From positions 168,952 to 232,951 of the forward strand of contig CAWAUW010000002.1 of assembly GCA_963785335.1 (NCBI GenBank): a stretch of DNA of 64,000 nt. Reading direction: 5' to 3'. Shown here in pieces: positions 13,903-14,584 of the stretch. This DNA comes from an uncultured Chlamydiales bacterium (GTDB lineage Bacteria > Chlamydiota > Chlamydiia > Chlamydiales > FEN-1388). Each line of letters starts with the position of its first letter. Position 1 is the stretch's first letter. Both the position numbers and the translations under genes were made by a program. Below the pieces are notes generated by a model that searched no databases, had not been told where the DNA came from, and saw only the letters and a list, made by a program, of their open reading frames with translations.

Positions 13903-14584
13903 TCAGCCTGAAGAGGCTGACAGTAAATAGCCGATCTTTCGATTTTTGAGTGATTTTTTCTAGATTTGTTATTTTTCGTAAATCCACATACTCTTGTGAG
14001 TAGGGGATTTACGAAAAATAACAAAGATAGGAAAAAGCGCCAAAAAGTGAATGGCGGATATTTGATGTCAGCCTCGAAGGGCTGGCATATAAAAGCCCAG
14101 GGCGTTGCCCTTAGCATTACCCATTTTTTTCAAATTTATTTTCATTATTCTAACATGTTCAAATTTAGCATGTTACAATCCATTTTTTGCGCCGAAGGTG
14201 CAAATTTAATAGTAGCCCACTGTTTCGCGCCGGAAGGTGCAAACGGTGGGAAAAAACAAAAAAAAACCTTGAAGTCGCGCCAGCGACTACTTAATATTAA
14301 ATAGTCGCTGGCGCGACTACAGGATTATTTGTTCCCGGTTTCCCACCGTTTGCACCTACCGGCGCGAAACAGTGGGCTATTAATAATTTGTTCCTCCGGA
14401 ACATTGGTTTCGAATAGCCTGTAAATGTATTTCTCTTCAATTTCGCAAGTTACGACACGGATTGTTGCAAGCTATTCACAAAGCGTATTTGTGTGTCTTT
14501 GCGTTTAAATATTTTGAATAAAATGGGTAATTCTAAGGGCGTTGACCTGGGCTGTTACATGTCAGCCTTTCAGGCTAAAAAAGG
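13903..14584. repeat. Stack of nested palindromes (family F3 modules plus others)
   Basis: Concentric inverted repeats: 14091-14127/14520-14556 enclose 14213-14253/14339-14379, which enclose 14273-14289/14302-14318. To the left, 13917-13950/14041-14071 enclose 13966-13985/14005-14024. Confidence 0.85.

Follow-up and report, generated by a model that had tools for sequence, protein, structure and literature searches.

Non-coding palindromic repeats of several kinds are known from bacterial genomes. Correia/NEMIS of Neisseria, RPE of Rickettsia and ERIC are palindromic miniature inverted-repeat transposable elements (MITEs) of 100-300 bp with terminal inverted repeats (TIRs), which are multi-copy, intergenic and sometimes inserted into one another. 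The repetitive extragenic palindromes (REPs) and bacterial interspersed mosaic elements (BIMEs) of enterobacteria and Pseudomonas are short, GC-rich imperfect hairpins that lie mostly in convergent or co-directional gaps; the dimers described occur in both polarities, some are hybrid, and the spacer may be structured or have DNA inserted between the partners (Di Nocera et al. 2013, PMC3733652). In the REPINs of the REPIN-RAYT system (Bertels and Rainey; PMC3116915, PMC3337134, with the definition of REPIN in the latter), two inverted hairpin units and a short spacer form one long hairpin that replicates as a unit, and the gene of the cognate RAYT, a Y1 HUH transposase, usually has the repeats beside it. 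No REP or MITE family in Chlamydiae is described in the searchable literature. The subject of this analysis is an 817-bp gap between genes (13840-14656) in a 64,000-nt stretch of an uncultured Chlamydiales bacterium (assembly GCA_963785335.1, contig CAWAUW010000002.1, positions 168,952 to 232,951; 'the window' in what follows). The gap is probably a mosaic of repeats of the REP/BIME/REPIN kind, non-coding and built from hairpin modules, which have accumulated between convergent gene ends and include a two-hairpin unit, here named F1, and a five-hairpin core element of ~214 bp, here named F3. The kind of element is well known, and the locus does not represent a new mechanism.

The limits of the gap were taken from the list of open reading frames (ORFs), in which the two flanking ORFs are convergent, so that the 3' ends of both point into it. 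A first-pass annotation, made from the letters alone, had found no credible ORF there and had described the gap as built of concentric inverted repeats arranged as triple-nested 'Russian-doll' palindromes. The first two statements held: the three longest ORFs within the gap have no Pfam match, neither a tRNA or tmRNA nor a tandem array was found in it, and every arm pair that had been named was returned by an independent repeat search (z = 23 to 43). Folded whole as single-stranded DNA (ssDNA), the gap reaches −206.5 kcal/mol as against −78 in shuffles (z = −30). The significance of each repeat was judged against 500 dinucleotide-preserving shuffles, by scoring the complementarity of half versus half or of arm versus arm.

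The outer arms, originally placed at 14091-14127 / 14520-14556 and taken as exact complements, are present with less than perfect pairing: the 37-mer has 6 mismatches to its partner (a pattern search at up to 3 mismatches gave one copy only), and the full pair, 14076-14134 / 14513-14571, is 83% complementary over 59 nt (repeat search and shuffles, z = 22.8). The middle pair was traced to 14203-14253 / 14339-14389, and the 41-mer within it (14213-14253 / 14339-14379) differs from its partner by a single mismatch. The inner pair (14273-14289 / 14302-14318, 17 nt) is exact, as had been reported, with a longer version at 14258-14295 / 14296-14333. Compared half versus half, the core at 14203-14389 is a continuous palindrome (82.5% identity, z = 43), and the left block at 13904-14084 aligns globally over its full length (75% identity, z = 25.5). 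For the outer arms, the core halves and the left-block halves alike, none of the 500 shuffles reached the observed score, so that the arms do align as reverse complements.

The number of layers is smaller than had been thought. The middle pair runs on into the inner one without a break, and both have their symmetry centre at 14295.5-14296; they are therefore one palindrome. The centre of the outer arms is shifted by ~27 bp from that of the core, and the spacers between outer arms and core (14135-14202 vs 14390-14512) are not complementary (z = 1.0-1.1, equalled by 78-84 of the 500 shuffles), which makes the outer arms a separate layer, independent of the core. The reading of the whole of 14069-14576 as one decayed palindrome of ~500 bp was likewise ruled out by the non-complementary spacers. 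In the left block, the two repeat pairs (13944-13985 / 14005-14046 and 13904-13933 / 14055-14084) have a common centre at 13994-13995. There are thus two layers in the right block instead of three, and one in the left. The triple nesting of the first-pass annotation falls with this count, also because its innermost hairpin belongs to F3 itself, being identical in one homologous copy of the element and altered on both stem sides in another.

F3 (14189-14402) is a symmetric composite palindrome of five hairpins, delimited from the continuous core palindrome and its homologues (nhmmer E = 1e-31 to 1e-33). From either end it reads terminal hairpin (14189-14201 and 14390-14402), arm hairpin, itself a hairpin within a hairpin (14216-14250 and 14342-14376), and, in the centre, two inverted 16-nt hairpins (14273-14288 / 14303-14318). 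It can also fold as a single long hairpin (−142 kcal/mol, z = −18). Three other copies were found. In a distant relative (locus L010), whose shared genes have ~74% DNA identity, the arms are 88-90% identical to those of F3. Scanning metagenomes for a relaxed form of the arm pattern brought in two more copies, L013 and L014. The latter has the full layout: terminal hairpin, ATTAATAG, arm hairpin (CCCACTGTTT CGCGCC GNNA GGTGC AAACGGTGGG), A-rich linker, central pair and mirror image, with a central 16-nt hairpin, AGTCGC-GCCA-GCGACT, identical to that of the window. In L013 the central pair is kept, both sides of its stem having changed (G>A and C>T), and the right arm has a different sequence with the same nested hairpin fold, so that the two arms are non-complementary. 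The four copies stand in four different gene contexts, and F3 is also found without F1 arms around it. No further copy was found in the ~210 kb of related DNA searched, the 64-kb window holding one, and a scan of a viral collection returned none.

What is conserved in F3 is the hairpin module, as in REPs, since the local stems are kept through two-sided changes. Over eight half-elements, 98.5% of the cells of the local hairpins were paired and 8 pairs were changed on both sides, a value reached by none of 500 shuffles, while slid controls of the same test gave 34-46% of cells paired. The terminal hairpins covary, with GTTCC/GGAAC, GTCCT/GGGAC in L014 (one U-G pair) and, in the window copy, GCGCC/GGTGC at the left end. 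Outside their tetraloops, the arm hairpins are nearly invariant in seven of the eight half-elements. The two arms of the element are true reverse complements, including the loop and wobble positions (on the same strand, T.G in one arm and C/A in the other). Immediately 5' of CCCAC in the arms stands the tag ATAG in seven cases of eight and GTAG in one; most copies have TGTAG before the central hairpin, its AG being paired, and F1 has AAAG before CCCAGGG.

The L010 copy carries a change of its own. A 278-nt palindromic element with the ends CAGGAGG..CCTCCTG, composed of modules resembling TATAG followed by CCCACAGT, stands in place of the central hairpin, of which only CGCGACT is left, and this F3 has on each side a whole hairpin of the ATCGTT type, a family with members in the window too. 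No further copy of the 278-nt element was found in the DNA searched.

The outer arms belong to the F1 family, whose layout is a CAGCC-loop-GGCTG hairpin, the linker TATAAAAG and a second hairpin, CCCAGGGC-loop-GCCCTGGG. The left arm (14069-14134, plus strand) comprises an F1 unit at 14069-14111, CAGCC-TCGAAG-GGCTG, TATAAAAG and CCCAGGGC-GTT-GCCCT, with a 23-nt extension, and its first hairpin doubles as the right end of the left block. The right arm (14513-14579, minus strand), identified by complementarity, comprises an inverted unit at 14536-14579 and the extension at 14513-14535. A profile built solely from copies outside the gap, with the two arms excluded, recovered both of them (nhmmer E = 2.1e-9 for the left, confirmed by alignment, and 1.2e-7 for the right). 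The extension, TTAGCATTACCCATTTTTTTCAAA, is common to both outer arms and is absent from the other F1 copies, which suggests that the two originated as sister arms of a single dimer and not through separate, unrelated insertions. In the second hairpin of each arm, the 3-nt loop has the plus-strand sequence GTT (14104-14106 and 14541-14543), so that the stems are inverted and the loop is not; this may reflect chance or loop flipping. Between the arms and F3 lie a left spacer of 54 nt (14135-14188), which is not complementary to its counterpart, and a right spacer of 110 nt (14403-14512), with short local hairpins only; no other copy of either was found in the DNA searched.

A second F1 locus in the window, at 61552-61925, has one plus-strand unit and three tandem minus-strand units with a 64-nt period (alignment and nhmmer), bringing the window to at least six F1 units at two loci (nhmmer). 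The composite palindrome at this locus is 78% identical over 237 nt to one at 6081-6314 of a Chlamydiales metagenome-assembled genome (MAG; L007), where the gene context is different. Single units were found in another Chlamydiales locus (L006), in one labelled Bacteroidota (L005, 3321-3376) and in a Verrucomicrobiae MAG (L001, 4630-4690), and a unit lies within a tandem repeat of ~212 nt of Cecembia rubra (Bacteroidota; L002, 5523-6847). By the test that the first-pass annotation itself had proposed, namely that separate insertions should occur independently of each other, the layers do so: the outer-arm unit recurs at 61552-61925 and in other genomes, and the core arms in three other contigs.

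On the opposite strand, F1 matches the Rfam motif Acido-Lenti-1 (RF01687), with the same two-hairpin layout and linker. The scores were 37.0 bits for the L007 copy, which equals the gathering score, 33.4 bits for 61738-61782 of the window and 20.2 bits for 14546-14577 in the right outer arm, with no match of the left outer arm to the model. The outer arms are therefore relatives of Acido-Lenti-1 and not members by the Rfam rule (gathering score 37 bits). An Rfam scan of the window gave no match at the gathering score, its sub-threshold matches being to generic long-hairpin models of miRNA precursors, and F3 has no Rfam match. The definition of Acido-Lenti-1 was based on 89 copies, with many in each Lentisphaera genome and some in tandem 200 nt apart, and its function is unknown (Weinberg et al. 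2010, PMC2864571); F1, too, is found in several copies, some of them in tandem. It is recorded for Acidobacteria and Lentisphaerae, whereas F1 is seen here in Chlamydiae and Bacteroidota, and Rfam classes it as a small RNA (sRNA) gene, whereas F1 here acts as a dispersed repeat. The presence of the F1-like unit outside Chlamydiae suggests that Acido-Lenti-1 may be a dispersed, REP-like repeat unit found across several phyla, with the possibility that the 'Acido-Lenti-1 sRNA' of Rfam is a cross-phylum REP-like mobile unit. Earlier, no described repeat family had been recognised in the architecture of the gap; this stands for F3 as far as Rfam is concerned, but REP dimers and BIMEs do match the architecture (PMC3733652), and the outer unit is related to RF01687.

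The left block (13904-14084) is a 181-bp imperfect palindrome with its centre at ~13994.5, recognised from its inverted-repeat pairs and from the alignment of its halves. It is a degenerate palindromic element that adjoins F1 on the left. Its central 20-bp stem (13966-13985 / 14005-14024) is exact, as had been claimed, and CAGCC-loop-GGCTG hairpins close both ends; the small hairpins earlier noted at 13904-13919, 14069-14084 and 14564-14576 are all present. The terminus at 13904 was tried as a further F1 unit, and the profile match was not significant. No second copy of the block was found in the ~210 kb of related DNA searched.

The gap is one case of many in the window. With one gene model for the whole survey, which covered the 23 intergenic gaps of at least 60 nt, a palindrome above the threshold of z > 8 was found in 11 of the 23, that is in all five convergent gaps, in 5 of 12 tandem ones and in 1 of 6 divergent ones. 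Most of the palindromes of the window fall in multi-copy families, and its composite elements are all mirror-symmetric in module order. Besides F1 and F3, the families of the window include the ATCGTT-type hairpins (240-381, 21356-21468 and 48760-48872), whose arms consist of short tandem motifs, a family of ~260 bp at 29.8 kb and 32.5 kb, and a family based on a 62-nt unit, paired tail-to-tail at 7274-7464 and head-to-head at 55668-55833. Since pairs of both polarities occur, it is the 62-nt unit, and not the palindrome, that is the repeated entity at 7.3 and 55.7 kb. Further long palindromes, without a second copy in the DNA searched, lie at 42156-42475, 42511-42637, 49996-50132, 51384-51545 and 62417-62583, and several of the single-copy ones have arms of short tandem motifs (GATCTTAATCTT, CACAGAG), like the ATCGTT-type hairpins. 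The palindrome load is lineage-specific, since no long inverted repeats occur in 35 kb of two relatives (L008 and L011).

With respect to REPs and BIMEs, the likeness is close. The repeats are short, GC-rich, imperfect hairpins in extragenic DNA, with modules of 13-35 nt where REPs are imperfect palindromes of about 20-40 nt, and the enrichment at 3' ends is that of the gap counts just given. The units are found as head-to-head and tail-to-tail pairs able to fold separately or as one long hairpin, as illustrated by the two polarities of the 62-nt unit and by F1, with its inverted pair in the gap and its tandem units at 61.6 kb. The differences are that the units are here chained into fixed composites, with 3-5 hairpins per half, that their tags are mostly ATAG or AAAG instead of the unpaired GTAG of the GTAG/CGTC-tagged REPs, and that the host is an environmental chlamydia. 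F3 in particular resembles a REPIN in its long-hairpin fold, in a sequence that is near-constant between related genomes and in the absence of target duplication. Its length, however, is about double that usual for a REPIN, additional hairpins are present at its ends and in its centre, and no RAYT was found with it in the window ORFs scanned or in the related loci. MITEs such as Correia/NEMIS, RPE and ERIC share with these elements the TIR-like ends, the long-hairpin fold, the multiple copies and the intergenic location; F3 differs in that no target-site duplication (TSD) accompanies its four copies, no parent insertion sequence (IS) with the same ends was seen, and the body is made of REP-like hairpin modules. 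A classical DDE-type MITE was accordingly set aside, the TIR-like ends being present and the TSD lacking, the latter a weak negative. A PATE derived from IS200/IS605, with same-polarity subterminal hairpins and no TIRs, was rejected because the arms of F3 are true reverse complements.

The present arrangement would most likely have arisen as follows. Insertions between two convergent gene ends would be harmless, and elements would pile up there. An F1 head-to-head dimer would have come first, F3 would then have arrived as a unit in the spacer of that dimer, and a second palindromic element, now degenerate (13904-14084), would adjoin on the left. The Russian-doll look has accordingly two sources. 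One is that the elements are themselves long palindromes composed of smaller palindromes, so that a single element is read as several arm pairs; the other is the one real nesting, that of F3 between the F1 partners, which is accounted for most simply by the arrival of F3 as a unit. The elements probably are, or once were, mobile, given that the same element is found in unrelated gene contexts and that the arms of F3 are nearly invariant between genomes whose shared genes are only ~74% identical. Their mobilisation may have proceeded through recognition of hairpins on ssDNA by a RAYT/Y1-like activity, as suggested by the absence of direct repeats or TSDs around the four F3 copies (a weak negative, as the ends are not fixed by an empty site), the true inverted symmetry, the (A/G)TAG or AAAG found 5' of CCCA stems and the two dimer polarities.

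Several points weigh against this account. Neither a RAYT nor another transposase was detected by Pfam among the 29 ORFs of the window that were scanned, and there is no RAYT in the gene lists of the related loci. The copy counts (at least six F1 units, one F3) cover the 64-kb window, and the left block has no second copy in the DNA searched. As both flanking genes are orphans, the insertion of F3 is something that we infer and do not observe. In place of the canonical unpaired GTAG, most of the 5' tags read ATAG or AAAG, and they are partly paired. Finally, a cellular function could be the reason why the F3 arms are so strongly conserved.

An IS with a defined target is found in the same species. 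A 1.87-kb element of the IS110 family, encoding a 465-aa DEDD transposase (PF01548 and PF02371), lies at 14130-15994 of L009 and at 9842-11710 of L015, two loci ~99% identical to the window, in both cases interrupting a REP-like module at one identical point, ..CTCTG^GAGTGCG... The same target is uninterrupted at 55768-55779 of the window, and the target motif CTGGAGTGCG has nine copies in the window, all within palindromes and none in the 817-bp gap. An identical transposase is also found on another NCBI contig and in a sequencing run with the exact proteins of the window. The ends of this IS, the only one seen, are unrelated to the terminal repeats. The targeting of REPs by IS110/IS1111 elements is documented (PMC1525189, PMC11187229), and the present element resembles ISPpu9, ISPpu10 and IS621 (PMC1525189, PMC11187229, PMC11208160) in that it was found twice at one position of a palindromic module. 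It differs from the repeats of the gap in being an autonomous IS, and nothing ties it to F1 or F3. Half a kilobase from the IS110 copy of L015, at 12204-12407, is a 204-bp concentric composite palindrome with ATAG-CCCAGG heads.

The possibility that the Russian dolls are systematic was considered, namely that palindromic elements insert preferentially into the centre or loop of other palindromes by means of a transposase or recombinase recognising hairpins or cruciforms. F3 does lie within an F1 pair, the 278-nt element of L010 does replace the centre of an F3 that is itself flanked by ATCGTT-type hairpins, and the IS110 element, with its targets confined to palindromes and the precedents cited for its family, was acquired twice, independently, at one position of a REP-like module. 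However, the cases of nesting number only two or three, and neutral accumulation in scarce insertion-tolerant DNA also yields nesting. The IS110 target, besides belonging to another family and being absent from the gap, is at the foot of an arm and not in a loop. The middle and inner pairs are not separate insertions, and the family at 29.8 and 32.5 kb, examined as a further case of loop insertion, was ruled out as such, its two copies being collinear with no nested insert. By taking these points together, targeted nesting is judged doubtful as an explanation of the gap. The first-pass proposal of elements entering existing palindromes survives in a weak form, in that one element lies inside another here and, as a second case, in L010, and in that the IS110 element twice entered the same hairpin module; a preference for loops was not demonstrated, F3 being off-centre between its 54-nt and 110-nt spacers. 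The broader form of the idea, that in environmental chlamydiae other palindromes settle by preference at or close to the symmetry centre of composite palindromes through a putative hairpin- or cruciform-recognising enzyme, draws on the F1 dimer, on the L010 replacement and on the position of that F3 between two ATCGTT hairpins, and is regarded as unlikely; if it were true, the nesting would be real Russian-doll growth, driven by an enzyme.

Growth of the palindrome itself, in which fold-back priming or template switching gives an inverted duplication that extends it outward, would agree with the mirror symmetry of every composite element of the window and with the private 23-nt extension of the outer arms, which look as if one had been copied from the other. 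Outward duplication nevertheless predicts complementary spacers, and those observed are unequal in length and pair no better than shuffles; moreover, the outer arms come from a dispersed family that is found without F3 inside, F3 occurs elsewhere without F1 arms, and in L013 the arms are non-complementary and each still folds. A mechanism that builds hairpins around hairpins, as also envisaged in the first-pass annotation, is contradicted by the spacers, and for the 817-bp gap palindrome growth is hardly credible and largely refuted. It may also be asked whether the hairpins are in the first place RNA structures under selection, such as bidirectional terminators, 3'-end stabilisers or a small RNA, with the repeats as a by-product. 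The site is downstream of both convergent genes, in line with the general 3' bias of such elements, the two-sided changes keep the local stems, the F3 arms are more conserved between genomes than coding DNA, terminator-like sites number 5 vs 1.4 expected, though with tails of mixed A/T, and the relative of F1 is filed by Rfam as an sRNA. Yet none of the hairpins is followed by a clean U-tract, the window gives no Rfam match at the gathering score, the symmetric elements give no strand signal, and a repeat, more than a dedicated gene, would be expected to turn up as these elements do, next to unrelated genes, in either orientation and in tandem arrays. As a replacement for the mosaic of REP/BIME-like repeats, selection on RNA is thus quite unlikely. 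REPs often serve as repeats and in RNA-level roles together, and a role in termination or stabilisation would be compatible with the mosaic.

The gap is bordered upstream by a gene for a 1102-aa ankyrin-repeat protein (10531-13839, plus strand; Pfam Ank families), which has no close homologue in other assemblies, and downstream by an orphan gene for a 277-aa protein (14657-15490, minus strand), for which a homologue search returned the protein itself as the sole match; both were taken from the ORF list. In two relatives (L008 and L010), a distance of ~5 kb, occupied by a glycosyltransferase and one gene of 1500-1650 aa, separates a CTP synthase-RuvX-TerC block from G6PD. In the window the same interval spans ~30 kb (~7.3-37 kb), and among the genes in it are that of the ankyrin protein, large orphans, those of two AAA_14/DUF4143 ATPases and that of a tyrosine phosphatase. 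By taking this difference in spacing into account, the gap sits in a variable, possibly effector-rich region.

In L009, which belongs to the same species and is ~99% identical, a T55/A55 run and a poly-C run of ~50 nt were noticed at 7612-7730 and 8300-8350, at palindromes corresponding to 62417-62583 and to the 61.6-kb locus of the window. These homopolymer runs are almost certainly artefacts of assembly or basecalling caused by the hairpins, and since they fall exactly at the palindromes, L009 was discarded as a source of information on polymorphism in unit copy number.

The present analysis shows that long 'nested' palindromes can be an artefact of reading palindromes that are built from palindromes. 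For a chlamydia-like genome, five or more families of composite hairpin repeats resembling REPs and BIMEs are now documented, one of which (F1) is tied to the orphan Rfam motif Acido-Lenti-1, and an IS110-family element with a defined REP-like target has been revealed in the same species. As the homopolymer runs of L009 illustrate, such elements break or corrupt assemblies, and they inflate intergenic regions, so that their recognition is useful for annotation and for the understanding of repeat dynamics in intracellular bacteria.

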